The notes under the pieces: generated by a model
Database searches by the model: none
Told to the model about the DNA's origin: nothing
What the model saw: only the letters and a program-made list of their open reading frames with translations
Assembly (NCBI GenBank): GCA_035479655.1
Contig: DATIIL010000005.1
Span: forward strand, 166,213-190,212
Origin: Candidatus Saccharimonadales bacterium
GTDB taxonomy: Bacteria; Patescibacteriota; Saccharimonadia; Saccharimonadales; UBA4665
Reading direction: 5' to 3'
DNA length: 24,000 nucleotides
Made by a program: the position numbers and the translations under genes
Shown: piece by piece, positions 28 through 13,853 of the stretch
How positions within the stretch are numbered: position 1 is the stretch's first letter
Layout: every line of letters starts with the position of its first letter

Positions 28-86
28 CTACCGCTTTCGCTCTCTATAGAGCTCATCAGCACGACTATACATTCGTGGAGCAGTAG
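28..86 (-). ncRNA. Type III hammerhead ribozyme HH-A (canonical core)
   Basis: Minus strand reads CTACTGC-TC|CACGA-atgtatag-TCGTG-CTGATGA-GCTC-tataga-GAGC-GAAA-GCGGTAG. Stems I and II are hairpin-closed and stem III is open (7 bp including one G-U). The CUGAUGA and GAAA core is complete. Predicted cleavage is 3' of the C at 78. Confidence 0.9.
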
Positions 87-160
87 GCAGGCAAGTGATA
101 CAGAATAGGATTTGAGCGTCGCGGAAGCGACGAACGCGTCCAGGCATGCCTGACTACTGC
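80..160 (-). other. Long imperfect 3' UTR hairpin of cassette 1; distal arm doubles as hammerhead stem III strand
   Basis: Plus-strand arms gcagtaggcaggca (80-93) and tgcctgactactgc (147-160) are complementary except for one mismatch. An inner mini-hairpin gtcgc-ggaa-gcgac is present. The element lies between the stop codon at 186 and HH-A. Confidence 0.7.
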
Positions 161-185
161 TGGCTGGGCGCGGGGCCGCGGACGG

Positions 186-752
186 CTACGCGTCGATGAT
201 TTGCCAGTTGGCCGACGCCGTGGTGTGGCGGCGGATGAGCTTGCCGAGCTCCGTGTGGTCGTGCTCGGCGCCGAAGACGTAGATTTGCGTCCAGGGGACG
301 CACAGCTGGTCGTCGGTGCCGCCGGGCTCGTTGAATATCGACGTGCAGGTCATGACCACCACGTCGTCGCCCAGTTCGGCCACGAGCTGCTTGCGCAGGG
401 TGGCTTGCTCGGCGTCGGTGAACTGGTCGATGGCGCAGGCGTACGGCGGCTTGTGGCCGTCGAGCCCCAGGATCGACGCGGCGACCATCTTGGCCGTGGC
501 CATGATGGCGACGATGTCGCTTCCCGGCGCCACGTACACCTCGACGCCGTCGTAGGCGCCGTCCAGCGGCGATGTCGCCTGGACACGGGTGACCTGCGGG
601 TGGCCGTCGACAACCTTGGCCACCCGGTGGAGGGCGGCGGGGTCAACGGCGGCCGCGCCGATGGCCGGCTTCAGCGTAAACCAGCGGCGGGCGCCACTGG
701 CAAAGCTGTAGGTTACGCCAATCAGCTGATCGGCGACGGTGCGGGTATGCAT
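186..752 (-). CDS. Hypothetical protein, GC-rich cassette cargo family 1 (about 188 aa)
   Basis: ORF 186..776 trimmed to the ATG at 752, which has GAGGAG 7 nt upstream. Third codon positions are strongly GC-rich. The opposite-strand ORF 201..875 is an Arg/Gly/His-rich antisense shadow. I recognise no domain. There is weak colinear similarity to 1094..1618 and 1972..2535. Confidence 0.8.
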   Translation of the reverse strand: MHTRTVADQLIGVTYSFASGARRWFTLKPAIGAAAVDPAALHRVAKVVDGHPQVTRVQATSPLDGAYDGVEVYVAPGSDIVAIMATAKMVAASILGLDGHKPPYACAIDQFTDAEQATLRKQLVAELGDDVVVMTCTSIFNEPGGTDDQLCVPWTQIYVFGAEHDHTELGKLIRRHTTASANWQIIDA

Positions 753-783
753 CGAAGATCTCCTCTTCGTCGGCATGCTCAGC

Positions 784-836
784 GAAATGTGAGCTATAAA
801 AAGAGAAGCAACTTCTCTCCTTGTAGCTCACATTTC
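784..836 (-). promoter_or_regulatory. 5' leader hairpin of cassette 1 (GAGCTA/TAGCTC class)
   Basis: A perfect 13 bp stem pairs gaaatgtgagcta (784-796) with tagctcacatttc (824-836). An inner 7 bp helix pairs agagaag with cttctct. The hairpin sits about 30 nt upstream of the SD. The 3' arm can instead pair as GCTCA-n8-TGAGC. Confidence 0.65.
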
Positions 837-902
837 ACGCGTACGCAAAATCTATCTGTACACTATGTCTGCTAAAGTACCTCAGTAAACTGAAGTTAGC
901 TT

Positions 903-931
903 ATTATATAACTAATACTTGCGATTGTCCA
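903..931 (-). promoter_or_regulatory. Sigma70-type promoter of cassette 1
   Basis: Minus strand reads TGGACA-17 nt-TATAAT, starting 4 nt after the 3' end of HH-B. Confidence 0.65.
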
Positions 932-934
932 CAA

Positions 935-989
935 TACTGCTTTCGCTCTTTCAAGCTCATCAGCATAGACATACATCTATGGAGCAGTA
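935..989 (-). ncRNA. Type III hammerhead ribozyme HH-B (canonical core)
   Basis: Minus strand reads TACTGC-TC|CATAG-atgtatgt-CTATG-CTGATGA-GCTT-gaaa-GAGC-GAAA-GCAGTA. Stem II is capped by a GAAA tetraloop. Predicted cleavage is 3' of the C at 982. Confidence 0.9.
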
Positions 990-1063
990 GGCAGACGTGG
1001 TACAGAGAGGATGGGGTTAAACGTCGCAGCGCGACAACCGTGATCCAGATGTCTGACTACTGC
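984..1063 (-). other. Long imperfect 3' UTR hairpin of cassette 2
   Basis: Arms gcagtaggcagac (984-996) and gtctgactactgc (1051-1063) have a single mismatch. Inner helices are GGTT/AACC and gtcgc-agc-gcgac. The element lies between the stop at 1094 and HH-B. Confidence 0.7.
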
Positions 1064-1093
1064 TGCTCGACACCGAAATGCCGGGCGGGTTGG

Positions 1094-1618
1094 TCAACGG
1101 ACACAAACCTGCTGAACGGCCTTATCGATGATCTGCCCGATCTCCTCCAGCGGCAGCTTGCACCCGATGATCCGGATGGTAGCCGGCATGGAAGTGAGCA
1201 GGTCTTCGCTACCCCGAAGAGTGGCGTAGACGAGCACAACCACGTGCGGGCCGAGCTGATCGGCGATCCGGTCGCGCACCTCGTCACGCTGTTCCGGCTT
1301 GAGGCCGTAGCGCATGATGATGTGCATCGACGGGGCGCCGTCGATCCGCAGGAACGCTGCCAGAATGTTCGCCGCCTGGTTGGCGACGTCCTCGATGTCG
1401 GCCGTTTCCTGCACCATCACGATGTAGGATGCCAAGAGGTCATACCCCAGGACATCCGTGACAGCGGGAATGCTGTACAGGAGCTCGCCGCCCTGGTTGA
1501 ACGCAGCGAGCGAGCCACCGTGGCCACCCAGAATGTCGATGACGACACACGGCCTGCCATCGGCAGTACGGTCCGGAGCGGCCTTGATTCGGCCGCCGAA
1601 GAACTCGAGCTCGGTCAT
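1094..1618 (-). CDS. Hypothetical protein, GC-rich cassette cargo family 1 (about 174 aa)
   Basis: ORF 1094..1651 trimmed to the ATG at 1618 (MTELEFF...), which has GGAGGA 9 nt upstream. GC3 is high. The antisense ORF 1040..1753 is rejected. The block ...KPEQRDEVRDRIADQLGPHVVVLVYA aligns with TDAEQATLRKQLVAELGDDVVVMTCT of 186..752. Confidence 0.8.
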   Translation of the reverse strand: MTELEFFGGRIKAAPDRTADGRPCVVIDILGGHGGSLAAFNQGGELLYSIPAVTDVLGYDLLASYIVMVQETADIEDVANQAANILAAFLRIDGAPSMHIIMRYGLKPEQRDEVRDRIADQLGPHVVVLVYATLRGSEDLLTSMPATIRIIGCKLPLEEIGQIIDKAVQQVCVR

Positions 1619-1660
1619 GACTATGAATCCTCCCTTGTGTCGGAGACTCAACGTTTGGAG

Positions 1661-1708
1661 AACGCGAGCTGGGAAAAGGCAACAGATTGTCTTCTCTCAG
1701 CTCGCGTT
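1661..1708 (-). promoter_or_regulatory. 5' leader hairpin of cassette 2
   Basis: An 11 bp stem pairs aacgcgagctg (1661-1671) with cagctcgcgtt (1698-1708). The loop contains the ttgcctttt motif (minus strand) that recurs in the array 2 leaders. Confidence 0.6.
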
Positions 1709-1781
1709 GTCCACGCCCGGTACTGTTTCTATTTCTGTACCACTGTCTGCTAAAGTACCTCAACGGAGTTGAGACGATAAA

Positions 1782-1810
1782 ATTATAACATAAAACTGTT
1801 AGATTGGCTA
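1782..1810 (-). promoter_or_regulatory. Promoter of cassette 2 (extended -10)
   Basis: Minus strand reads TAGCCA-17 nt-(TGt)TATAAT. The -35 element abuts the 3' strand of HH-C stem III. Confidence 0.55.
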
Positions 1811-1861
1811 CTGCTTTCGCTCTATAGAGCTCATCAGCACGACTAGCATTCGTGGAGCAGT
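1810..1861 (-). ncRNA. Type III hammerhead ribozyme HH-C (canonical core)
   Basis: Minus strand reads ACTGC-TC|CACGA-atgctag-TCGTG-CTGATGA-GCTC-tata-GAGC-GAAA-GCAGT. Predicted cleavage is 3' of the C at 1855. Confidence 0.9.
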
Positions 1862-1936
1862 CATCAGACACAGATACAGGTTGGGGGAGCGCCGAAGGGC
1901 ACCGCAGCCAGCCGTGTAACCACGTCTGAGGACTGC
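1857..1936 (-). other. Long imperfect 3' UTR hairpin of cassette 3
   Basis: Arms gcagtcatcagac (1857-1869) and gtctgaggactgc (1924-1936) have one mismatch. An extra GC hairpin gcggcc-ggat-ggccgc lies between arm 2 and the stop at 1972. Confidence 0.7.
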
Positions 1937-1971
1937 TTGCCGCGGCCGGATGGCCGCAGTAGGGTGCTCGC

Positions 1972-2535
1972 TCAGTGCTTGATCCACGGGGCGGTGATGT
2001 TGGCCTCGGCCAGCAAGCCGTCCAGGCTGCGGATCGCCCACGTACAGTCCGTGATCTGCACCACGGTGACGTGCTTGAATTCCGGCTCGCTACCGCGGCG
2101 GTTGACGTTCTGCCGCGCCTTGTAGACGAGCACCTTGCCACTGCCTTCGAGCTTTTGGTTCAGCCACTTGTACAGCCGAGCCATCTCCTCGCCGGTCAGC
2201 GCCTGCAGCTCTGCGTCGAGCGCGACCACGTAGGGCACGAGCCGATCGTCGACGAGCAGCATCGGCTCGATGACGCTGATGGCCATGGCCATCACGCTTT
2301 CCAGCTGCAGGTCCTCGGGGTCGTCACTCACGTGTACCTCGAAGGTCTGCGTTCCGGAGAACGGGAGGGCCTTCGTGACTCGCGGCACGGTCTTCAGCAG
2401 CTCCACAGCGTACGCCATGACGTCGCTGCCGTAGCGTCCGAGGCCCCGATCGGCGATGTGGATCGTGAACTGAGCCTGGCCCGGTGCCACCGTGGTTGCG
2501 ATGGCTACCAGTGAACCGTTCTTGGATGTCTGCAT
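1972..2535 (-). CDS. Hypothetical protein, GC-rich cassette cargo family 1 (187 aa)
   Basis: The ATG at 2535 has GGAGGAGGAG 5 nt upstream. GC3 is high. The antisense ORF 1975..2514 is rejected. The pattern is colinear with the other two family 1 proteins (EVHVSDDPEDL...; TGEEMARLYKWLNQKLEGSGKVLVYKA). Confidence 0.8.
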   Translation of the reverse strand: MQTSKNGSLVAIATTVAPGQAQFTIHIADRGLGRYGSDVMAYAVELLKTVPRVTKALPFSGTQTFEVHVSDDPEDLQLESVMAMAISVIEPMLLVDDRLVPYVVALDAELQALTGEEMARLYKWLNQKLEGSGKVLVYKARQNVNRRGSEPEFKHVTVVQITDCTWAIRSLDGLLAEANITAPWIKH

Positions 2536-2601
2536 TGAGACTCCTCCTCCGATGTATCTGTATCCGAGAATTTACTTCAGGCCGAAACCTAAAGAATCTC
2601 T

Positions 2602-2630
2602 ATTATATCATGATATCTGCTCAAATTCTA
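2602..2630 (-). promoter_or_regulatory. Promoter of cassette 3 (extended -10)
   Basis: Minus strand reads TAGAAT-17 nt-(TGa)TATAAT, directly after the 3' end of HH-D. The short leader contains an 8 bp hairpin capped by UUCG. Confidence 0.55.
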
Positions 2631-2683
2631 GTCGTTTCGCTGCCATTACAGCTCATCGGAATAGCTCTTACTCTATTGACGAC
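2631..2683 (-). ncRNA. Hammerhead-like element HH-D with variant core (U4 to C)
   Basis: Minus strand reads GTCG-TC|AATAG-agtaagag-CTATT-CCGATGA-GCTG-taatgg-CAGC-GAAA-CGAC. All three stems and GAAA are present, but the core reads CCGAUGA instead of CUGAUGA. Confidence 0.6.
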
Positions 2684-2893: not shown

Positions 2894-3160
2894 TTACCGC
2901 GCCGGCGGCCTGGTGAGCTCAGCCCACCACGACACCTTGGCGCGGTAGAAGAGGGTGATCCCGCCCGCGGTGGCGGTGTTGCCCGCCAGAATCCCGAGGA
3001 TGAACCACCACAGCACCGCATCGGCGTCCAGCTTGAACAGCTTGGCGCAAATCACCAGGGTGATCGATCCGAGGACCAGAACGCCCAGGAAGATGATGCC
3101 GAAGAGCATCCGGCAGCGGCGGTCGAGAAGTTCCTTCTCGACCTTGTTCACGTACGTCAC
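2894..3160 (-). CDS. Small GC-rich membrane protein (about 88 aa, two predicted TM helices)
   Basis: ORF 2894..3295 trimmed to the GTG at 3160, which has GAGGAG 5 nt upstream; this is where the GC-rich composition begins. Hydrophobic stretches are MLFGIIFLGVLVLGSITLVICA and VLWWFILGILAGNTATAGGITLF. The exact start is uncertain. Confidence 0.65.
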   Translation of the reverse strand: MTYVNKVEKELLDRRCRMLFGIIFLGVLVLGSITLVICAKLFKLDADAVLWWFILGILAGNTATAGGITLFYRAKVSWWAELTRPPAR

Positions 3161-3205: not shown

Positions 3206-3234
3206 ATTATAACATGATTCTAGTTGCGTGGCTA
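3206..3234 (-). promoter_or_regulatory. Promoter of cassette 4 (first cassette of array 1)
   Basis: Minus strand reads TAGCCA-17 nt-(TGt)TATAAT. An 8 bp hairpin ggtctgtc-atgg-gacaggcc follows at the start of the transcript. The promoter is divergent from rpmF. Confidence 0.55.
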
Positions 3235-3319
3235 GCGCCCGCCGCCACCCTTGAGATTTCAACACGGTTCGGGTATAATATGACCAAATAATCAATCCAC
3301 AGTAAGGAGTCTTTTAGCT

Positions 3320-3505
3320 ATGGGTAAACCCAAGAAACGAACCTCATCGCGCCGCACCGGCGCTCGTCGCAGCCACTTAGTGCTAGAGCTGGCCCGCGCG
3401 GTCAACGCCAAGTCGCCAGTCAAAGTCCGTACCACAGTCCGCGAGAGCGGCAAAGCCACTGACCAGCCTGTAAAAGCCACCAAAAAGGCCGTAAAAGCTG
3501 CCTAG
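3320..3505 (+). CDS. rpmF: 50S ribosomal protein bL32
   Basis: A 61 aa protein starting MGKPKKRTSSRRTGARRSH, the typical L32 N-terminus. AAGGAG lies 9 nt upstream, and a TATAAT box lies further upstream. Confidence 0.85.
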   Translation: MGKPKKRTSSRRTGARRSHLVLELARAVNAKSPVKVRTTVRESGKATDQPVKATKKAVKAA

Positions 3506-3562
3506 TACTGTCCGGCCGGTCCCGGTATACTAGGTATATGAACTGTAAAGGCGACGCAGAAG

Positions 3563-4102
3563 ATGGCATCTAATCGACACCTTGGCCGCATCATTGCTCT
3601 CCAGACGCTGTTTGAGCAGGATTTTCGGCGCGCCGCGAGCGACGACACCTTTAACCTCGAAGACGTGTTGCAGCGTAACATTGCGCGCTACCAAGCTACC
3701 GTCGACGACACCGACTTTATCGAGCGCCTGGTACACGGTGTTAACGAGCATCAAACCGAGCTAGACGAACTACTGCAGCCGGTCGCGCCCGACTGGCCGA
3801 TCAGCGAGATCGCCCGCATGGATCGCATTTGCCTGCGTATGGGCCTGTACGAGCTTAAGTACGAGCAAGAGGGCGTGCCCGCGAAGGTCGCTATCAACGA
3901 AGCGGTGGAACTGGCCAAAGCGTTTGGCAGCGAGAACTCCTCGCGCTTTATCAACGGCGTGCTGGGCACCGCGCTGCGCATCCTAAACGGCGAAACCGTG
4001 GAAGCCAAAGTTGGCAAACACTCTGGTGCCGACCCCAACAAAGCCGCCCGCAAGAAACAAGCCGACAAAAAGGAGCCGCAGCAAGAGGAGAACGCCGCAT
4101 GA
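3563..4102 (+). CDS. nusB: Transcription antitermination factor NusB
   Basis: The N-terminus RHLGRIIALQTLFEQDF and ...AINEAVELAKAFGSENSSRFINGVLG are typical NusB signatures. A Lys/Glu-rich C-terminal tail is present. Confidence 0.9.
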   Translation: MASNRHLGRIIALQTLFEQDFRRAASDDTFNLEDVLQRNIARYQATVDDTDFIERLVHGVNEHQTELDELLQPVAPDWPISEIARMDRICLRMGLYELKYEQEGVPAKVAINEAVELAKAFGSENSSRFINGVLGTALRILNGETVEAKVGKHSGADPNKAARKKQADKKEPQQEENAA

Positions 4103-4596
4103 AGCGCCCAAGCCTCGGTGGGTTTCGGCGTTTTGTCCCCGGTCATCGTCCCAGCATCCAAGAAGTGGTGCACGAGACCACCGCTGGCGGCGTGATTTTT
4201 CGGCGCAATAAGGAATCTGGCAAGCTAGAAATCCTGTTAATCCAAGACGCGAAGGACCGCTGGACGATTCCAAAAGGTCACGTAGAAGAAGGCGAAGAGC
4301 CCAAAGGGACGGCCGAGCGCGAGATCAACGAAGAAACCGGCCTAAAAGAAATGAAAGTCTTTAACTGGCTGGGCAAAGTGAACTTCCGCTACCGCCGAGC
4401 GCAGGTGTTGGTGCTCATGACTATGCACATTTACTTAGTACAGGCGCTGGGGGACACCAACGATTTACACCCCGAAGACTGGCTGAACGACATCAAATGG
4501 TTCCCGGCCAGCGAAGCCATCGACAAGATCGCTTACGACGACATCGGCAAATTAATTCTAGTGGGAATGAAAAAAATCCGCGATGCAAGACTCTAG
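4099..4596 (+). CDS. NUDIX hydrolase
   Basis: The Nudix box GHVEEGEEPKGTAEREINEETG matches GX5EX7REUXEEXGU. The ATGA start overlaps the nusB stop. Confidence 0.85.
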   Translation: MKRPSLGGFRRFVPGHRPSIQEVVHETTAGGVIFRRNKESGKLEILLIQDAKDRWTIPKGHVEEGEEPKGTAEREINEETGLKEMKVFNWLGKVNFRYRRAQVLVLMTMHIYLVQALGDTNDLHPEDWLNDIKWFPASEAIDKIAYDDIGKLILVGMKKIRDARL

Positions 4597-5286: not shown

Positions 5287-6972
5287 CTAGAGATCGGTGT
5301 ACATATTGGTGTCCAGTGCGGTACGCAACCGCGTGGCATGGGCCGAGGTGTGCTCGCCGTAAGCTAGGCGCATAACTTCGGAGCCGATCCAGCGCGCCTG
5401 CCACTCGGCCGGGCTCAGCTCGGGCCGGGCGGCTGTTGCGCTCAGACAAGGTTCCACGCGGATACGCAGCGGGTCGTCGGCCATAAAGACTCGAGCGGCA
5501 TCTACCATAGTCGGATCGCTGAGTATGTCTCGCTTAAAACCGGGACCTACTTTGTCCGCGCGGTCCCCAAGTAGATCACTAAACAAGGCGGGGTCGAAGC
5601 GGAGCTGTCCATCCCCATCCGCAAATAAGCTGTACATAAATGTGGGCCCGAGAATTTTCGAGATTTTCCACCTTTCGGCCGACGACAGCTGGTTCGGGAG
5701 CTGTTCGCCAAATATGCTGCGTGCGAACTTATACGCATAGTTGACCACGTAGTCTTCATGGACAACCAGGCTGCCGTCTGGCTCGAGCGTGGAGTCCTCT
5801 AGGGCACGTTTGAAGTTGACGTGTTTCGTTTTATCAAATCGCTCATTATGTTCCACTAAGATGGTCGGAATGAGCTCGGCAACCGGATAGCCGAGCGCGG
5901 CAAGGCGTTCGCGCGGTTGCGCGAGGCCGTAAGCCATACCACTCATCAACCACAGCAGCGCGTGATCGTTGCTTGGCCGGAGGAAGGAATTTCGTGCCTC
6001 AATGTAGTCTTCGACGACCCGCAGCTGGGTACGATGGGTGGTAATGCGAGGGGTGATGCGCTGATTCTTGATGTCATCGAGCAAGTCGGCCGATCCGCTG
6101 ATAGAGATGTACACGCAGTCCGAAATAGCCGCATTCAGGCCGGAAACCACCCGCAGCGTCTGTTCGATCCGAGCCGCGTCGCTGCCAATAATCGGGCGGC
6201 CATGCCGCTGCCCGTTCTGCTCTGTAATCTGGTAAGCGCTGATATTGAGGTGGTCGCCGAGCGGCAGCACATACAGGCCGAGTTCGGCCGCTGCGTCGGC
6301 CAAGCTCGTTCGCAGGAGCGTCTCGCGCTCGTCCAGCGCTTCTGGCGGGCCGGGAGTAAGACGGATTTCACCGAGGCCCGCGCCGCCGTCATAGTATCCA
6401 CGCTGGTGGGTCTCGGGGCCAAAGCGCCACTCTACCATACCCATAGCTTGGCTGTAGGCGAGCATTTCGTCGTAACTTATGCCTTTGGGCGGCTTGGGGC
6501 TAGCCAGGGTCGGGGTAGAGAAACGCTTATAGACCAGGTAATTTACCCAGTCCTTGACGGTGAAATTGGGGATGCTGTCTAGCCAGCGCTGCTTTTTCTG
6601 GGCTTCGGCGGCAGTTGTAGGTACCAACTGGCCGATGGTGGCGACGGCATCAAGGCGCAGCTCGGCAATTTTGGCCTCGCGCGCTGCTTCATCGGCGGGA
6701 TGCTGGACGCTCGACGGCAAGCCAATTGCCGCATAGATTGATCCGCTGTCCAGCAAGAACTCTATCTCTTTGCTCGCAAGAAACAACAGTGGCTCACCAT
6801 GCTCGCCGTGGGCAATTTCTTGCTGGACGGTGAGCATTCGGTCGCGCATAAAGACTCGTTCGTCGAAGGGCAGCAGCGTCTCGGCGGCCAGAGTTTTAGA
6901 AGGGTAGGCCTCTGTCAGCATAGTTGCAGGATTATAGTATAGCTTGGGTTGTTTATCAATATTGGATGCCAA
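5287..6972 (-). CDS. Hypothetical protein (561 aa), backbone-like composition
   Basis: A long uninterrupted ORF with backbone-like GC, convergent with rnc. The internal plus-strand ORFs look like antisense shadows. I can name no domain. Confidence 0.8.
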   Translation of the reverse strand: MASNIDKQPKLYYNPATMLTEAYPSKTLAAETLLPFDERVFMRDRMLTVQQEIAHGEHGEPLLFLASKEIEFLLDSGSIYAAIGLPSSVQHPADEAAREAKIAELRLDAVATIGQLVPTTAAEAQKKQRWLDSIPNFTVKDWVNYLVYKRFSTPTLASPKPPKGISYDEMLAYSQAMGMVEWRFGPETHQRGYYDGGAGLGEIRLTPGPPEALDERETLLRTSLADAAAELGLYVLPLGDHLNISAYQITEQNGQRHGRPIIGSDAARIEQTLRVVSGLNAAISDCVYISISGSADLLDDIKNQRITPRITTHRTQLRVVEDYIEARNSFLRPSNDHALLWLMSGMAYGLAQPRERLAALGYPVAELIPTILVEHNERFDKTKHVNFKRALEDSTLEPDGSLVVHEDYVVNYAYKFARSIFGEQLPNQLSSAERWKISKILGPTFMYSLFADGDGQLRFDPALFSDLLGDRADKVGPGFKRDILSDPTMVDAARVFMADDPLRIRVEPCLSATAARPELSPAEWQARWIGSEVMRLAYGEHTSAHATRLRTALDTNMYTDL

Positions 6973-8395: not shown

Positions 8396-10066
8396 TTATT
8401 CAGTTTCGTCACCCGCGCGCTTCCGCGAGCGGCTGGCGCTGGGGATGATGATCAGCTCCGCGTAGGGACCGGCCTTCAGGTCGATCGGTGCCCGGGTGAT
8501 CTCCAGGTCCAGTTCCAGCGACAGCGCCACCAGCAGTTCCAGGGTGAGCCACTCCTGTAGGTGCATGATCCTGCGATCGTGCTCCGTGGTGTGCTCACCC
8601 TTGGTTTCGTCCATCAGCACCCATGTGGGATGCCGAATGTTGAACGTCAGGATGCACTCGTCGTGGCTGTATTCCCACAACCGGTCAGAGGCCAGGGCCT
8701 CATGTGCGTACCGAAGCGGGAAACCACGACGCGGATCGTGCGGCCGGCGTTCGGGCCGTGGGCCGACCACCTTACGGCGTTTAGAAGACGTGCCCGTCTT
8801 GGGCGTGGCTTCTTCCCGTCGCTTGGTGGCCGCCAGGGCATCCTCCTGGGAGGGCAGGAACCTGGCCAGGTCGGCCAGATCGCTGTTCTTCCGGAAGAGT
8901 TCGCGCAGCCGTTCCAGCGACCGCTGTCCGAGTCGGGCATGACGCTCCTCGCGCAGCGCTTCGCGCTCGTTCTCGAGGAGGTTGCTGCCGTACCGGCTGA
9001 ACCAGGTATCTACGACGAAGTAGAAGTTGGTCAGCAGGTCGTTGGCCACGAACAGGTCACGGGACTTACCCAGCTCAAGGTGTTCGACGGTGATCATACC
9101 CTCAAAGTAGCCCGAGCGCAGTGCGCTGATGGCTTCCTTGATGGAGTCGATCTGTTGCCACTGCGTCCCCATGAGCTGGGTAGAGAATTTACCCTTGACC
9201 GGGATGGGGTTGTCCGGATCCTCTTTGCTGCGGACCCACACTTCTCCTTCCCGTTGTCCGCTGTCGCCGCGTCGAGCCTTGAACAGCTCGAACGTGACGC
9301 GGCCGCAGACGCTGTCTTCGATGGTGACGATGTCGAGCCGCTCGCCCCGGAATTCATGGGGGTCGATGGTTCGCCATTCCACGCTACCGTCGGCAGCGAT
9401 CAGTACGGCCAGCACCGTAGTGCCCAGGCGCCGCATGGCCGCGCTAAACCGGCCGCGGATGATCGATTCCACGTCGTTGAGCGACGCGATGCCGATCGTC
9501 CTGTCCTGCGTGATCTCGTTGAGACGGACCATAGTCCGCCACCCGTTGATCATCGGCAGGCCGGCCAGCCGGATGAACGGCGCAGCCGGGTTTGGGCTGA
9601 AGGTCGGGCGGGTGGTGAGCGGGATCTGCACGGCCTTTTGGGCCTTGATCTTCTCCTGCTCAAAGGTCCACACGTTGACCACCGGACTGCCCGCGGGTTG
9701 GCTCCAGAACTCGAACAACCGGCACTTGGCCAGCGGCGAGATCAGACCCAGCCCGAAGCGTCCGATGCTTCCCGGCTTCTTGATGCCCTTGCCGACAGTC
9801 AGAAGTGCTTCATTGAATCGCTCTTCCGTCACGCCTTCGCCATTGTCACAGACGATGATCGAGCGCTTGGGAAGGTCGACGCCAATGAAGATCGTCGGAG
9901 CTCCAGCGTCGAGGGCGTTCTGTACGCCTTCGGCCACGGTTTGAGCCAGCGAGGGATAGGTGTTGGAGTACGTCATGAACGTCTCCCCCATGTGCACCCC
10001 CGCATCGACCATCCGGACATCTCCGTGCGGCGGCCGACCCGGCTGAGGGGCCGATTTCGTTGGCAT
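8396..10066 (-). CDS. GHKL-superfamily ATPase (HATPase_c_3 / MORC-like N-terminal domain), 556 aa
   Basis: Bergerat-fold motifs are in order: N box AEGVQNALDAG, G1 box CDNGEGV, G2 box GRFGLGL. AGGAGG lies 4 nt upstream of the ATG at 10066 and overlaps the upstream gene's stop codon. GC3 is high. The C-terminal two-thirds are unassigned. Confidence 0.85.
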   Translation of the reverse strand: MPTKSAPQPGRPPHGDVRMVDAGVHMGETFMTYSNTYPSLAQTVAEGVQNALDAGAPTIFIGVDLPKRSIIVCDNGEGVTEERFNEALLTVGKGIKKPGSIGRFGLGLISPLAKCRLFEFWSQPAGSPVVNVWTFEQEKIKAQKAVQIPLTTRPTFSPNPAAPFIRLAGLPMINGWRTMVRLNEITQDRTIGIASLNDVESIIRGRFSAAMRRLGTTVLAVLIAADGSVEWRTIDPHEFRGERLDIVTIEDSVCGRVTFELFKARRGDSGQREGEVWVRSKEDPDNPIPVKGKFSTQLMGTQWQQIDSIKEAISALRSGYFEGMITVEHLELGKSRDLFVANDLLTNFYFVVDTWFSRYGSNLLENEREALREERHARLGQRSLERLRELFRKNSDLADLARFLPSQEDALAATKRREEATPKTGTSSKRRKVVGPRPERRPHDPRRGFPLRYAHEALASDRLWEYSHDECILTFNIRHPTWVLMDETKGEHTTEHDRRIMHLQEWLTLELLVALSLELDLEITRAPIDLKAGPYAELIIIPSASRSRKRAGDETE

Positions 10067-10074
10067 GACCCCTC

Positions 10075-10818
10075 CTAGTTGTCGGTCGGACGCTGGCCGC
10101 GAGCACGCTGTCCGTCGTGCAGCCGCTCCGAGTTGAGCCCTTCGGTGAGAAGGACCATGTCGAAGACCACCTTCGGACCGACCAGCTCGCGAACTTGCGC
10201 CCGTTGGGCGGGCGTGTAGCGACCCGACATCACTTCCCGAAGCAGCGGTGCGGCCTTGCCGAACGCTTCACCCAGCTGGATGGCGATAGCCATCAAGTCG
10301 GGCGCGCCCGGCGTGGCGTTTGCCGCTGCCGCCGCGGTTGCTACGGGGACGGTCGCGGTGGTGGCAGGTTCGTCACCCGGGTTGTAGGCCCGATCGCCGA
10401 GCTTCTCGCGAAGCTTGGCTTGGGCTTTCTTGAGCCGGTCGCCATACTCCGTTTGCAGCGCGGTGAGCGTCTTCGTCGGCTTCAGGAACTTCGAGTCGCC
10501 GCGGGCGGCATTGAGCACCGCCTGCGACTGCTTGACGTGGCCGATCCGCATGGCCTGTGCCAGGTCGATGACCCGGTAGGCCAGCAACTGCCCGACGTAG
10601 TACTCGAGTTCATTGACCTCGCGCGTCGGACCGTTGACCGCTTCCAACAGGTGCCAGAGGCGGTTGATGTGTGCGCCGGTCGGCGGGTGTTTCCCGCTGA
10701 GCCATCCCTGTACAGTACCAGGAACGGTCACCGTGAAGCCCGCCACCAGGCGGAGGTCGAGTCCTGCTGCACGCAGCTCTTCGACGAGCTGGTTGGCAAG
10801 GCTCCGGCTCTCGGCCAT
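10075..10818 (-). CDS. Putative XRE-like helix-turn-helix protein (247 aa)
   Basis: ORF 10075..10887 trimmed to the ATG at 10818 (MAESRSL...), which has GAGGAGG 5 nt upstream. The N-terminal segment VAGFTVTVPGTVQGWLSGKHPPTGAHINRLWHLL resembles an HTH_XRE motif. The gene appears translationally coupled to the GHKL gene. Confidence 0.75.
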   Translation of the reverse strand: MAESRSLANQLVEELRAAGLDLRLVAGFTVTVPGTVQGWLSGKHPPTGAHINRLWHLLEAVNGPTREVNELEYYVGQLLAYRVIDLAQAMRIGHVKQSQAVLNAARGDSKFLKPTKTLTALQTEYGDRLKKAQAKLREKLGDRAYNPGDEPATTATVPVATAAAAANATPGAPDLMAIAIQLGEAFGKAAPLLREVMSGRYTPAQRAQVRELVGPKVVFDMVLLTEGLNSERLHDGQRARGQRPTDN

Positions 10819-10901: not shown

Positions 10902-10930
10902 GTTATACTATTTTTCAGGCTCTGATACAA
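10902..10930 (-). promoter_or_regulatory. Candidate promoter of the HTH-GHKL operon
   Basis: Minus strand reads TTGTAT-17 nt-TATAAC. The leader contains the hairpin gcatcggc-aacc-gccggtgc. Confidence 0.45.
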
Positions 10931-10952
10931 GCATGAGCGTAGCCGTCGGGGC

Positions 10953-10985
10953 ATAATAAAAGAGCCGAACGAGTCGGCTCTTTTG
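10953..10985 (-). terminator. Rho-independent terminator after the LPXTG protein gene
   Basis: An 8 bp stem agagccga/tcggctct is flanked by A and T runs on both sides. Confidence 0.75.
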
Positions 10986-11008
10986 GTTGATTTTCTAGAG
11001 TGTTTGTC

Positions 11009-11659
11009 TTAGGCGTTCTGCGCGCGACGGTGGCGCAAGTAGTAACCGACGTAACCAGCCACAGCGACGATGCTCGAAATGATGAACACGTTGCTACCGG
11101 TACCGGTGTCCGGCAAAACCGGAGGGGTTACTGGCGGCGTAGGAGGGGTCGGTGGGGTCGGAGGAGTCGGCGGGGTAACAGGGGTACAACTCTGAGTACC
11201 ACCGTGCAACGAGCCGAGTAGCAGACCCTTAGTGTATTGCGGGCCACCGTTTGCGTCCGTGGCGTTCGAACCGCGCAGCAGGTCAACCTGGTAGAAGCAG
11301 TCAGGCAATTTTACGTTAATGGTGTGCGTGCCCGGAGCGAACGTTTCGGTTTTGTGGGCAAACAGTTTTTGCTGATCGTAGGGCTGGCCCTTGTCGGCGT
11401 TTGGCGCTTGCCAAGCGGCAAAGGTTACGGCCTGGGTACAGTCGGTGCCGCTCACGATAACCGTGGCGCTCACCGTGCCGTCGTTGTTCAGCACAAAACG
11501 GCTGTTTGATTGACCAACAGTGTCTCTGTTACCAACCGTGGTCACCGTACAGGTGGTCGACGTGCTGGTAGCAGTGTCGGCGCTCACAACAGCGGGGACG
11601 AAGCTCAAAAGGCTTATCACGCTGGCTGCGCCTAGCAGAGTACGCTTAAAAGTATTCAT
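11009..11659 (-). CDS. LPXTG-anchored surface protein with Pro-Thr linker
   Basis: The signal peptide is MNTFKRTLLGAASVISLLSFVPAVVSA. A (TPP)n linker is present. The sorting signal is LPDTG, a hydrophobic segment and RHRRAQNA. AGGAG lies upstream. GC content matches the backbone. Confidence 0.85.
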   Translation of the reverse strand: MNTFKRTLLGAASVISLLSFVPAVVSADTATSTSTTCTVTTVGNRDTVGQSNSRFVLNNDGTVSATVIVSGTDCTQAVTFAAWQAPNADKGQPYDQQKLFAHKTETFAPGTHTINVKLPDCFYQVDLLRGSNATDANGGPQYTKGLLLGSLHGGTQSCTPVTPPTPPTPPTPPTPPVTPPVLPDTGTGSNVFIISSIVAVAGYVGYYLRHRRAQNA

Positions 11660-11721: not shown

Positions 11722-11741
11722 GCATGTTACCAAGCTTGCGG

Positions 11742-11792
11742 CCGCTTTCGCTGTTTCCAGCTCATCAGCATGAACACACATTCATGGAGCGG
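11742..11792 (-). ncRNA. Type III hammerhead ribozyme HH-E (canonical core)
   Basis: Minus strand reads CCGC-TC|CATGAA-tgtgtg-TTCATG-CTGATGA-GCTG-gaaa-CAGC-GAAA-GCGG. Predicted cleavage is 3' of the C at 11787. Confidence 0.9.
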
Positions 11793-11890
11793 TAAAGCAG
11801 ACACAGAGTTTGATAGTAGAGTAGGAAGTTGTTTTAGTCCGAGGACCAAAACACCAATCCACATCCACATCTCTGTGAATGCTTTACCGC
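11789..11890 (-). other. Long imperfect 3' UTR hairpin of cassette X1
   Basis: The 20 nt arms gcggtaaagcagacacagag (11789-11808) and ctctgtgaatgctttaccgc (11871-11890) have a 2 nt internal mismatch. An apical stem gtttt.gtc-cgag-gac.aaaac is present. Confidence 0.7.
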
Positions 11891-11947
11891 CCGTTGAAGG
11901 GCAGGCTACTCCCAGAGTGCATGGGTGAGGGTAGTGACCCCTTCAGG

Positions 11948-12655
11948 TTAGACGACCACGATCTTCAGGCCCGGGGGCATGTCGCCGCCGAAGAAGCCGC
12001 GGATGTCGTCTTCGACCTGTTGCTGGATGCGCTGCCGCTCGGCCTCGTACGCCGCTTCAGCCGCTGCCGCCGCGCGCAGTTCGCCCGTCGGGTCGGCGAA
12101 GTCCATGATGACTCCTTCGACCAGCGGGTCGATGTTCTCGTCGTCCTTGTAGAGCGCGGCGACGCGCGTGAAGGCGACGTCGTCGTGCTCCAGGTTGACC
12201 GCCAGCACGTGGCTGACACCGTCGACCGAGAGCAGCCGCTCGCGCAGGCTGTCCAGGTCGTCGACCTGCGGCAGGTCGGCCCCGATGCAGACGTCGCCGC
12301 TCTTGAGCATGACGCTCATGAGGACGCTCTGCAGCGCCGCGATCAGCGTCTCCCGCTGGGCGGGGTCGCTGATGGTGACGGTGCCGATGGCCATGACGGT
12401 CTCGGTGCCGCCGTTGCCGTCGGGTCGCCAGCCGGACTCGGCGTCGTCCATGTCGTGCAGGTCGCGGTCCCAGACCACGGACTGCACGCCGGTGACGCCG
12501 GGGAGCTGAGTCAGCAGCACCAGGTGCTGCCAGTCGTTGGGCACCCGCCCGGCGACGCGGATCTCGATCTGGTCGGGCTCCGTGCCGGCGATGGCGGTGA
12601 ACGAGCCGAAGAACGGCTGGAAGAACGGCCGTTGGTTGTCGGGCGTCTCGAACAT
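11948..12655 (-). CDS. Hypothetical protein, GC-rich cassette cargo family 2 (235 aa)
   Basis: ORF 11948..12712 trimmed to the ATG at 12655 (MFETPDN...), which has AAGGAG 6 nt upstream. GC3 is high. The antisense ORF 11879..12730 is rejected. It shares long identical blocks with 13059..13598. Confidence 0.8.
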   Translation of the reverse strand: MFETPDNQRPFFQPFFGSFTAIAGTEPDQIEIRVAGRVPNDWQHLVLLTQLPGVTGVQSVVWDRDLHDMDDAESGWRPDGNGGTETVMAIGTVTISDPAQRETLIAALQSVLMSVMLKSGDVCIGADLPQVDDLDSLRERLLSVDGVSHVLAVNLEHDDVAFTRVAALYKDDENIDPLVEGVIMDFADPTGELRAAAAAEAAYEAERQRIQQQVEDDIRGFFGGDMPPGLKIVVV

Positions 12656-12694
12656 TCGAAACTCCTTGGTACTCTTCACTTCACTCGCCCAGTG

Positions 12695-12734
12695 CGAGCT
12701 AGCAAAAGGCAAAATATTACCTTCTGTTAGCTCG
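12695..12734 (-). promoter_or_regulatory. 5' leader hairpin of cassette X1
   Basis: The stem cgagcta (12695-12701) pairs with tagctcg (12728-12734), with an inner AAGG/CCTT helix and a ttgcctttt loop motif. The 3' arm can instead form CTCGC-actgg-GCGAG. Confidence 0.55.
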
Positions 12735-12812
12735 TACTGGACGCACTATCAAATACATTGTGTCTGCTAAGGTACTTAGCCATAGGCAAGAAGCCGTTGA
12801 CGAAGCGCACTT

Positions 12813-12841
12813 ATTATACAATTCGCGCGCTTTTATGTCAA
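12813..12841 (-). promoter_or_regulatory. Consensus promoter of cassette X1
   Basis: Minus strand reads TTGACA-17 nt-TATAAT exactly, 10 nt after the 3' end of HH-F. Confidence 0.75.
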
Positions 12842-12850
12842 CGGAGGTAA

Positions 12851-12903
12851 ACCGCTTTCGTCTTTTTAGACTCATCAGCATGAACACGCATTCATGGAGC
12901 GGT
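12851..12903 (-). ncRNA. Type III hammerhead ribozyme HH-F (canonical core)
   Basis: Minus strand reads ACCGC-TC|CATGAA-tgcgtg-TTCATG-CTGATGA-GTCT-aaaa-AGAC-GAAA-GCGGT. Predicted cleavage is 3' of the C at 12897. Confidence 0.9.
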
Positions 12904-13001
12904 AAAGCAGACACAGAGAGTTTGATAGTAGAGTAAGAAGTTGTTTCGTCCGAAGACGAAACACCAACCGCATCCACATCTCTCTGTGAATGCTTTACCG
13001 C
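12899..13001 (-). other. Long imperfect 3' UTR hairpin of cassette X2
   Basis: The 22 nt arms at 12899-12920 and 12980-13001 have the same 2 nt internal mismatch as X1. The apical 8 bp stem at 12943-12962 reads C(UUCG)G on the minus strand. Confidence 0.7.
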
Positions 13002-13058
13002 CCGTTGAAGGGCAGGCTACTCCCAGAGTGCATGGGTGAGGGTAGCGAGCCTTTCAGG

Positions 13059-13598
13059 TCAGACGACGTCCGCCAGGACCTCCTCGATCGTCTCCTCGAC
13101 ACTCGAGTCACCCTGGTACAGGATGGCGATCCGCGTGAGCGGGGCGCCGTGGAGGAGGTTGACCGCCAGCACGTGGCTGACACCGTCGACCGAGAGCAGC
13201 CGCTCGCGCAGGCTGTCCAGGTCGTCGATCGCCGGGATGTCCTCAACGATGCAGTAGTCGTCGTTCAGGAACATGACGCTCTCGATGACGCTCTGCAGCG
13301 TCGCGATCAGCGTCTCCCGCTGGGCGGGGTCGGCGATCGTGATGGTGGCGGTGGCCACGGTCGTGACGGCTTCCACGGCCTCGGCGGCGTTGTGGCTGTC
13401 GGCGAGGTCGCTCAACTCGTGCAGGTCGCGGTCCCAGACCACGGACTGCATGCCGGCGACGCCGGTGAGCAGGGTCTGCAGCACCAGGTGCTGCCACGCA
13501 TTCGGCACCTCGCCCATGATGCGGAGCTCGATGATCTCGGGCTTCACGCCGGCGGCGATGGTGACCGAACCGATGAACGGCACCCTGTCCTCGGACAT
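13059..13598 (-). CDS. Hypothetical protein, GC-rich cassette cargo family 2 (179 aa)
   Basis: ORF 13059..13697 trimmed to the ATG at 13598 (MSEDRVPF...), which has AAGGAG 7 nt upstream. GC3 is high. The antisense ORF 12990..13670 is rejected. Confidence 0.8.
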   Translation of the reverse strand: MSEDRVPFIGSVTIAAGVKPEIIELRIMGEVPNAWQHLVLQTLLTGVAGMQSVVWDRDLHELSDLADSHNAAEAVEAVTTVATATITIADPAQRETLIATLQSVIESVMFLNDDYCIVEDIPAIDDLDSLRERLLSVDGVSHVLAVNLLHGAPLTRIAILYQGDSSVEETIEEVLADVV

Positions 13599-13634
13599 GT
13601 GGTACTCCTTCGTGCTATATACTTCACTCGCCCA

Positions 13635-13680
13635 GTGCGAGCTACCAAAAGGCAACGAATTACCTTCTAGTAGCTCGCAC
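13635..13680 (-). promoter_or_regulatory. 5' leader hairpin of cassette X2
   Basis: A 10 bp stem pairs gtgcgagcta (13635-13644) with tagctcgcac (13671-13680). The loop carries ttgcctttt (minus strand). An alternative CTCGC-actgg-GCGAG hairpin lies downstream. Confidence 0.6.
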
Positions 13681-13761
13681 CGCAGGCGTACTATCAAACA
13701 AATCTAGTGTCTGCTAATGTGCTTTGCCATACGTAATAAAACCGATGACAAAGATAGTAAT

Positions 13762-13790
13762 ATTATACAATTTGATGTTGACTATGTCAA
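13762..13790 (-). promoter_or_regulatory. Consensus promoter of cassette X2
   Basis: Minus strand reads TTGACA-17 nt-TATAAT exactly, about 10 nt after the 3' end of HH-G. Confidence 0.75.
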
Positions 13791-13800
13791 CTAAGTATTG

Positions 13801-13853
13801 ACCGCTTTCGCTGTTTCCAGCTCATCAGCACAAATACACATTTGTGGAGCGGT
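13801..13853 (-). ncRNA. Type III hammerhead ribozyme HH-G (canonical core)
   Basis: Minus strand reads ACCGC-TC|CACAAA-tgtgta-TTTGTG-CTGATGA-GCTG-gaaa-CAGC-GAAA-GCGGT. Predicted cleavage is 3' of the C at 13847. Confidence 0.9.

Follow-up and report, generated by a model that had tools for sequence, protein, structure and literature searches.

Saccharibacteria-specific hammerhead ribozymes in arrays of GC3-rich gene cassettes and their proposed role in making and sealing mRNA 3' ends

Clustered hammerhead ribozymes that flank single genes have been described in prophages of Clostridium scindens, Azorhizobium caulinodans and Agrobacterium tumefaciens, where the ribozymes were shown to cleave in vitro as well as in vivo and were proposed to cut long transcripts into messenger RNAs (mRNAs) of gene length (Perreault et al. 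2011, PMC3088659). A comparable layout is seen in a stretch of 24,000 nucleotides (nt) from Candidatus Saccharimonadales bacterium (GenBank assembly GCA_035479655.1, contig DATIIL010000005.1, positions 166,213 to 190,212), hereafter the window, in which two arrays of small genes are punctuated by type III hammerheads. As in the prophage clusters, hammerheads of one orientation separate single genes of unknown or variable identity, and the processing role that we propose is the same. A first-pass annotation of this DNA had called the regular arrangement unusual; the regularity, one ribozyme per gene, stands, whereas the prophage clusters show that it is not unprecedented. Unlike those clusters, the present arrays are chromosomal in a bacterium of the candidate phyla radiation, with no prophage context or nearby integrase, and their ribozymes are all of type III and form a single Saccharibacteria-specific clade missed by standard annotation. 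Furthermore, every gene has its own promoter and is a GC3-rich ORFan, that is, an orphan gene with a high guanine-plus-cytosine (GC) content at third codon positions (GC3); a long helix in the 3' untranslated region (3'UTR) overlaps ribozyme stem III and ends at the cut; and the 5'UTR is complementary to the 3'UTR. A full-text literature search of incomplete coverage returned no paper joining hammerheads with Saccharibacteria, TM7, Patescibacteria or Nanosynbacter.

All array elements discussed below lie on the minus strand and are given in window numbering, with C17 denoting the cleavage nucleotide. By direct reading, each hammerhead runs from 5' to 3' as the stem III 5' strand, U16.1, C17, the stem I hairpin, CUGAUGA, the stem II hairpin, GAAA and the stem III 3' strand. 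The four elements proposed for array 1 in the first-pass annotation are all present, with refined bounds of 29-86 (3' of gene C1a, C17 at 78), 935-990 (3' of C1b, C17 at 982) and 1809-1863 (3' of C1c, C17 at 1855), each with a CUC triplet, and 2630-2685 (3' of C1d, C17 at 2678), with a GUC triplet; the cleavage positions and the stem I and stem II sequences that it had quoted are likewise correct on direct reading. Also as claimed there, the CUGAUGA...GAAA core is complete in the first three copies, the fourth having three intact helices around a CCGAUGA core (U4C). The array itself is larger than the four members then recognized: a fifth copy, again U4C, lies beyond the window start, and a sister array at 11740-14707 contributes hammerheads at 13800-13855 (C17 13847), 12850-12905 (C17 12897) and 11740-11795 (C17 11787). 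The type III core (C3-U4-G5-A6-N7-G8-A9 ... G12-A13-A14, A15.1-U16.1, H17) is found in 29-86, 935-990, 1809-1863 and the three array-2 copies, so that a complete core and NUH site occur in six of the seven window copies; 2630-2685 and the fifth copy depart from it by C4. The pattern CTGATGA-N8-30-CGAAA occurs seven times in the window against 0.02 expected, which excludes a chance origin of the array motifs. The CTGATGA...CGAAA at 15343-15377 (minus strand), inside trmD, is without hammerhead helices and was set aside as a chance match.

The elements share with the Rfam type III family RF00008 (clan CL00010) the core, the NUH site, loop-closed stems I and II and an open stem III, and differ from it in their shorter stems and in scores of 32-41 bits, below 48.5. 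At the gathering score of 48.5 bits, a database threshold and no biochemical criterion, RF00008 has no match in the window; the first-pass annotation had named the lack of a covariance-model match above threshold, along with a lack of self-cleavage, as speaking against the ribozymes, and the first part of this outcome is formally what is seen at the RF00008 cut-off. In E-value mode the family gives five minus-strand matches (32-41 bits, E 7e-6 to 2e-3), with 34.3 bits for 935-989, 35.5 bits for 1809-1862 and 32-41 bits for the array-2 copies, while 29-86 and 2630-2685 go unreported even then. Likewise, none of 12 tested loci of relatives from other genomes reaches the RF00008 cut-off. These low scores, and the absence of the clade from routine annotation, can be attributed to its short stems: stem I spans 5-7 base pairs (bp) and stem II 4 bp with a tetraloop. 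A covariance model of the clade (R1), built solely from 40 hammerheads of other genomes and used to scan the window with filters off, gives 59-77 bits for six window copies, namely 77.1 for 12850-12905, 74.7 for 13800-13855, 71.6 for 11740-11795, 71.3 for 935-990, 60.9 for 29-86 (E 8e-16) and 58.8 for 1809-1863. The U4C copy 2630-2685 scores 24.6 bits (E 3e-5), and the best background match in the window 10.6 bits.

A scan of one genome per species with the pattern GCTCCA-N14-17-GCYGATGAG-N8-14-CGAAAG yielded at least 119 loci. Among the matches listed, to which the counts of related loci in this text refer, about 100 are true hammerheads in which stem I pairs and which score 55-84 bits with the clade model; nearly all of these come from records titled Saccharibacteria, Saccharimonadales, Saccharimonas or Nanosynbacter, and the listed matches from other phyla fail the pairing test. 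The same pattern produced one doubtful match among the 2.9 million viral contigs of IMG/VR. Within the collections scanned, the clade is found almost solely in Saccharibacteria chromosomes. In the 40-sequence alignment 95.6% of the cells are standard pairs and 11 of the 17 pairs are changed on both sides, as against 29-47% paired in controls with partners slid by 1-3 columns; the covariation in the hammerhead helices includes G-U pairs. The first five stem I pairs served as a selection filter, which makes stem I partly circular evidence; no such filter was placed on stem II or on outer stem III. Compensatory stem changes are also present among the window copies themselves, bearing out, within the window and across relatives, the earlier remark that the stems vary with pairing kept as in functional ribozymes. 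In type III hammerheads a tertiary contact between loops 1 and 2 is needed for activity at physiological Mg; members of the clade have similar sequences in loop 1 (UGYGUR, one U being invariant) and in loop 2 (RAAA), and this conservation suggests selection. When each copy of this genome is folded alone, the three-way junction is the minimum free energy (MFE) fold for six of the eight; hammerhead 1 takes up this junction, and for hammerhead 2 the hammerhead is the MFE fold with a z-score (z) of -2.2. Together these observations support well the conclusion that the elements are genuine, structurally conserved type III hammerheads, which we take to be catalytic. The two U4C copies, at 2630-2685 and beyond the window start, are probably impaired, since C4 is absent from all 68 distinct relatives from other genomes even though the search pattern permitted it. 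Established mutagenesis of the hammerhead core likewise points to impairment by U4C.

To the 5' side of the cleavage site, the ribozymes are bound up with a second conserved structure. When 160-nt stretches ending at the cut were folded for about 100 loci, a recurrent helix emerged. One of its strands is formed by the final 15-25 nt before the cut, which contain both a conserved CUGCUUGUCA motif and the 5' strand of stem III, and the other by sequence lying 70-100 nt farther 5'. This sealing helix, as we term it, has a small hairpin inside it and comes to within 0-3 nt of the cleavage site, and its arms vary in sequence among loci with pairing kept. In RNAduplex comparisons the median energy of pairing between the 22 nt before the cut and the upstream region is -23.9 kcal/mol, whereas shuffled arms give -14.9; 69 of 99 loci have z below -2. 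In array 1 the helix extends over 78-162 for C1a (upstream arm 143-162; 3' arm 78-108, including the stem III 5' strand and ending at C17), 982-1066 for C1b (arms 1045-1066 and 982-1005), 1855-1936 for C1c (arms 1920-1936 and 1855-1879) and 2678-2759 for C1d, where arms at 2727-2759 and 2678-2695, as read from the sequence, pair through C17. The six window helices tested range from -23 to -35 kcal/mol (-23 to -24 for the three array-1 copies among them, C1a included), and the 5' cleavage product adopts the sealing helix in all six cassettes folded. Sealing helix and stem III are mutually exclusive over 5-7 nt.

Alignment of eight intergenic regions shows that both arrays are built from one homologous module, in which a near-consensus promoter is followed by a 5'UTR with a long hairpin, an ORFan gene, the 3'UTR helix and the ribozyme. 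Array 1 comprises five such units and array 2 three, with one hammerhead per gene and all in one orientation. The array-1 genes are C1d (2894-3160, 88 amino acids (aa), GTG start, GC3 0.90), the first cassette of the array, C1c (1972-2535, 187 aa, GC3 0.87), C1b (1094-1618, 174 aa, GC3 0.81), and C1a (186-752, 188 aa, GC3 0.91), an ORFan whose frame, ribosome-binding site (RBS) and start could be assigned; the fifth gene lies past the window start (10918-11493 in the numbering of locus L001). Its hammerhead (L001 11595-11650), the U4C copy already mentioned, scores 69.9 bits with the clade model. The distances from stop codon to hammerhead were measured as 100, 104, 109 and 209 nt for C1a, C1b, C1c and C1d, within the 90-210 nt of the first-pass annotation, and its description of the genes as GC-rich agrees with a GC content of 0.63-0.68 and GC3 of 0.81-0.91 in array 1. 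Array 2 holds three paralogous, GC3-rich ORFan genes, A2a (13957-14523), A2b (13059-13598) and A2c (11948-12655). Across the cassette genes GC3 is 0.81-0.96 compared with 0.59-0.75 in the housekeeping genes of the window, and values at first and second codon positions are normal, a combination that establishes the reading frames and shows the composition to be foreign.

Sigma-70-like sites follow the hammerheads, with a perfect TTGACA-17-TATAAT (12/12) three times in array 2 and 10-11/12 after hammerheads 2 and 3 of array 1. The site for C1a (903-931, TGGACA-17-TATAAT, 11/12) begins 4 nt after hammerhead 2, and that for C1b (1782-1810, TAGCCA-17-TG-TATAAT) overlaps the end of hammerhead 3 with its -35 hexamer. 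A weaker site precedes C1c (2602-2625, TTTGAG...TATAAT), others precede C1d (3206-3234) and lead array 2 (14679-14707, 11/12), and the start of the promoter-like site of the fifth cassette (1-22) runs off the window. No convincing intrinsic terminator was found between the cassette genes, a single weak inner hairpin being all that was seen. In the 5'UTRs a conserved segment (GTACYTTAGCAGACA...) accompanies the long hairpin, which lies at 782-840 in the C1a 5'UTR (782-875), 1657-1712 in that of C1b (1657-1753), and 14557-14609, 13634-13681 and 12691-12738 in array 2. Comparison of seven cassettes, one of them from another genome, shows compensatory changes in 13 of the 22 pairs predicted for this hairpin; a perfect double-stranded RNA hairpin beside the RBS might serve as an RNase III site or stabilise the 5' end. 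An Rfam 'mir-61' label (E-value mode, 1655-1714, plus strand) coincides with the C1b hairpin and is spurious. A metagenome scan with the 15-mer GTACYTTAGCAGACA gave 120 loci, none with a same-strand hammerhead core, and these were discarded as chance matches. One metagenome contig (Ga0209629_10103227, L164) has 13 tandem GTACYTTAGCAGACA matches in 2.9 kb with no hammerhead, apparently an unrelated tandem repeat.

Within a cassette, the 3' arm is matched by the 5'UTR segment plus an extension peculiar to that cassette; this complementarity covers 14-25 bp, with duplex energies of -21 to -30 kcal/mol and z against shuffles of -2.8 to -7.3. The complementary segments lie at 852-875 for C1a (TTAGCAGACA...; -21.4 kcal/mol, z -2.8) and 1735-1753 for C1b (-29.2 kcal/mol, z -3.7). 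In C1c the corresponding segment (2553-2566, CGGAUACAGAUACA) is unlike that of the other cassettes in sequence and still matches its own arm (-29.6 kcal/mol, z -3.7), compared with -11.6 to -20.2 for other arms; in a cassette from another genome (L041) the pairing is kept with different letters, UUAACAGUGUAGUG with CACUACACUGUUA. Pairing with the arm of the adjacent upstream hammerhead was considered and rejected: the own-cassette arm pairs better in five of six comparisons, and the first cassette of array 2, which has the segment and no hammerhead upstream, forms 20 bp with its own 3' arm. The segment is absent from the gene after the last hammerhead. Such pairing might hold the two ends of an mRNA close to each other; alternatively, cleavage might be licensed when the 5'UTR invades the sealing helix.

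The fifth hammerhead sits 14 nt 5' of the RBS of a lower-GC gene of 258 aa that lacks a promoter of its own; on this arrangement the gene must be expressed from read-through across the fifth ribozyme, and transcripts therefore read through these ribozymes. From the above we infer, and hold to be somewhat probable, that each hammerhead makes the 3' end of its cassette's mRNA in vivo, that the hairpin then seals this end and that the cassette is thereby insulated. Transcription would pass through the 3'UTR and the ribozyme, there being no intrinsic terminator between cassettes, and the ribozyme would cut after C17. The final 20-30 nt of the upstream product, including the stem III 5' strand, would pair with the segment 70-100 nt upstream, leaving an mRNA with a long terminal hairpin that ends in a 2',3'-cyclic phosphate. 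The sealing fold could act as a ratchet: after the cut, the upstream arm would close again on the newly made 3' end, drive out the ribozyme body and prevent religation. By analogy with terminator hairpins, this fold should guard against 3' exonucleases. The cut would also uncouple the cassette from read-through into the next one, which itself has its own promoter.

Parts of this scheme have counterparts elsewhere. At the RNase III sites between early genes of phage T7, reportedly described by Dunn and Studier, cutting is said to leave the upstream mRNA ending in a stable hairpin; there a host protein cuts a double-stranded RNA hairpin, whereas here the RNA itself would cut beside one. In the hammerheads of viroids and satellite RNAs a more stable, ribozyme-excluding fold competes with the active fold and dominates after cleavage; those RNAs are circular replicons, while here the alternative fold is the 3'UTR hairpin of a protein-coding mRNA. 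RiboJ, a synthetic hammerhead with a neighbouring hairpin attributed to Lou et al. in 2012, is said to free gene expression from its transcriptional context; it is engineered and placed in the 5'UTR, whereas the elements here are natural and stand at the 3' end.

Several observations weigh against the proposal that the ribozymes make and seal 3' ends. In the uncleaved RNA of 3'UTR plus ribozyme the MFE fold is the sealing helix, and forcing stem III costs 5.5-10 kcal/mol, a gap that may be overestimated since folding energies ignore ribozyme tertiary contacts. The upstream arm is, moreover, transcribed before the ribozyme, and on both counts cleavage may be slow or dependent on a trigger. About 30% of the related loci have no significant long helix by the RNAduplex test. 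Exact copies of the stem III partner occur upstream in only 20 of 97 loci (4.3 expected), and a universal exact duplicate of the stem III 3' strand was accordingly not adopted, the helix mostly ending 0-3 nt short or using G-U pairs. Two of the eight copies carry U4C at a core position that is invariant in all relatives, and the 5'UTR-3'UTR complementarity is not required by sealing.

The first of these points leads to the main rival explanation, under which the sealing helix is the resting, ribozyme-off state, opened by the cassette's own 5'UTR, a protein, a helicase or temperature, so that a regulated cut alters the fate of the mRNA in place of constitutive end-making. The predicted disadvantage of 5.5-10 kcal/mol for the ribozyme-competent fold speaks for it, as do the three alternative partners of the 3' arm (the upstream arm, the own 5'UTR and the stem III 3' strand) and the perfect match, read from the sequence and the duplex comparisons, between the 5'UTR and the middle of the 3' arm, a point at which the upstream arm is mismatched; this match continues onto a cassette-specific toehold. 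However, no ligand-binding or sensor element was found, the 5'UTR is on every gene-containing transcript, leaving nothing evident to sense, and nearest-neighbour energies ignore hammerhead tertiary structure. We regard a conditional switch as unlikely on balance. It is quite improbable, in our estimate, that the function lies in the DNA, with the long imperfect inverted repeat, which adjoins a conserved sequence, serving as a recombination or cassette-exchange site and the hammerhead as a passenger or a secondary feature. Integron cassettes, too, are small genes in a single orientation, for the most part ORFans, with an imperfect palindrome of some 60-140 bp behind each. The present genes share one orientation, and an imperfect palindrome of 85-105 bp comes after each of them; they are compositionally foreign, and at the rpsL locus of relatives unrelated upstream genes adjoin the same hammerhead, with a homology break about 21 nt 5' of GCTCCA. 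In contrast to integrons, there is no integrase (nor any transposase) in the window or within 10 kb beyond it, and every cassette has its own promoter; the attC cores GTTRRRY and RYYYAAC are absent from five of seven intergenic regions and off the boundaries in the other two. The covariation in the hammerhead is furthermore of the RNA type, G-U included, which a DNA site would not require.

Two further explanations take the arrays as sources of processed RNA of other kinds. If two successive hammerheads were to cut a read-through transcript and its 2',3'-cyclic phosphate and 5'-OH ends were joined by the ribozyme or an RtcB-type ligase, unit-length circular RNAs would result, which could be circular mRNAs or mobile RNA intermediates like those of retrozymes and viroid-like RNAs. 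Tandem same-orientation hammerheads whose stem III strands are interchangeable within each array, and the lack of terminators between cassettes, fit this idea, which Perreault et al. raised for clustered hammerheads without detecting circles (PMC3088659). The strong promoters of the individual cassettes, by contrast, would have most transcripts begin downstream of the preceding ribozyme, the sealing helix keeps the 3' end away from the ribozyme body, most relatives elsewhere are single-copy, and the window codes for neither a reverse transcriptase nor a ligase; we rate excision as less probable still than a DNA-level role. Finally, the arrays might belong to an integrated phage or mobile element whose long transcripts the ribozymes process, for which the layout matching that of PMC3088659 and the foreign composition of the ORFan genes could be cited. 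Yet the flanks are housekeeping genes (rpmF, nusB, rnc, trmD, leuS), integrase, capsid, tail and terminase genes are lacking from the window, no cassette protein has a PHROG match, the clade is absent from 2.9 million viral contigs save the one doubtful match, and many relatives adjoin core genes such as rpsL. We consider prophage processing the least probable of the readings discussed.

Beyond this genome, the ribozymes of the clade sit 30-150 nt 3' of small open reading frames (ORFs). By sequence, the 105 upstream ORFs group into 51 clusters, eight representatives of which lack any Pfam domain, and the ORF upstream of the hammerhead exceeds background long ORFs in GC3 in 63 of 94 other loci (median +0.10, Wilcoxon 2e-6), a rough comparison in that the background contains spurious ORFs. 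Most relatives in other genomes are single, with two or three copies within 8 kb at five loci (L022, L083, L041, L050 and L098). L041 (oriented 3285-4252) and L022, the latter with three hammerheads, carry the same cassette type as the window, with hammerhead, promoter, 5'UTR motif and hairpin, gene, sealing helix and hammerhead; the GC content of their genes is above the local average, and two of these hammerheads read CUGACGA, with C at the variable position 7. Among 99 related loci, 46 carry a T-rich tail after the 3' strand of stem III, many of them where the ends of genes converge, and no window copy has one; at such loci the hammerhead may sit inside an intrinsic terminator or replace it. 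Upstream of rpsL, three loci with unrelated genes (L007, L008 and L018) share the hammerhead and most of the sequence 3' of it at 92-100% identity, with a dip to 78-93% just after the hammerhead; identity drops to 75-80% in the comparison window beginning about 21 nt before GCTCCA and to 25-45% further upstream, and this break indicates that the hammerhead forms the border of a slot whose gene can be replaced. A broader proposal, which we offer tentatively and hold to be more doubtful than that for the single cassette, is that hammerhead plus sealing hairpin form a lineage-wide 3'-end module of Saccharibacteria. It would tag fast-evolving or acquired GC3-rich genes without known domains, make of them autonomous cassettes with joined mRNA ends and, as at rpsL, provide an anchor for the swapping of unrelated genes.

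The cassette proteins match no family in Pfam, PHROG or PADLOC. Those of array 1 constitute one very divergent family (20-28% identity), C1b being a divergent paralogue of C1a and C1c; those of array 2 constitute another (57% and 29% identity), and kinship between the two families was rejected at a profile-profile probability of 1.9%. A HMMER profile search of 1.84 billion representative proteins matched only the four array-1 paralogues of this genome, and a word-indexed protein search likewise only paralogues of this genome. An AlphaFold2 (AF2) model of C1a (predicted local distance difference test (pLDDT) 75, predicted template modelling score (pTM) 0.74) displays repeated beta-alpha-beta units, which can be read as tandem ferredoxin-like units; comparison of the model with the PDB gave no match below E 0.01. 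Hydrophobic stretches in C1d suggest a membrane protein.

Both arrays are flanked by housekeeping genes, including rpmF, nusB, rnc, rpsP, trmD and leuS, and a cytochrome bo3 operon lies in the same window. The last gene of array 2 (11009-11659) codes for a secreted, LPDTG-anchored protein bearing a stalk of PT repeats; the canonical intrinsic terminator after it (10957-10985) shows that the organism uses ordinary terminators elsewhere. Directly after array 2, on the minus strand at 8396-10818, are two more GC3-rich genes (about 0.80), one for a 247-aa protein with a weak helix-turn-helix-like match and one for a 556-aa GHKL-type ATPase (HATPase_c_3), which weakly matches both the TmtA model of PADLOC and a PHROG without assigned function; the pair may be foreign and defence-like. 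ORFs of 561 aa (5287-6972) and 341 aa (17622-18647), also on the minus strand, have a host-like composition and no Pfam family.

The role of bacterial hammerheads is still largely unknown, and this clade makes a good test system. It has about 100 or more members among the species-representative genomes scanned, is chromosomal and unseen by standard annotation, holds a consistent position 3' of small accessory genes and is accompanied by a covarying hairpin that shares stem III nucleotides; it also occurs in genomes of Nanosynbacter, a genus with cultured members. The function offered here, an RNA that would make its own 3' end and then seal it, is concrete and testable. If correct, it would bear on how ultra-small symbionts express and exchange foreign-looking genes, and it may provide a natural design for a compact 3' insulator.

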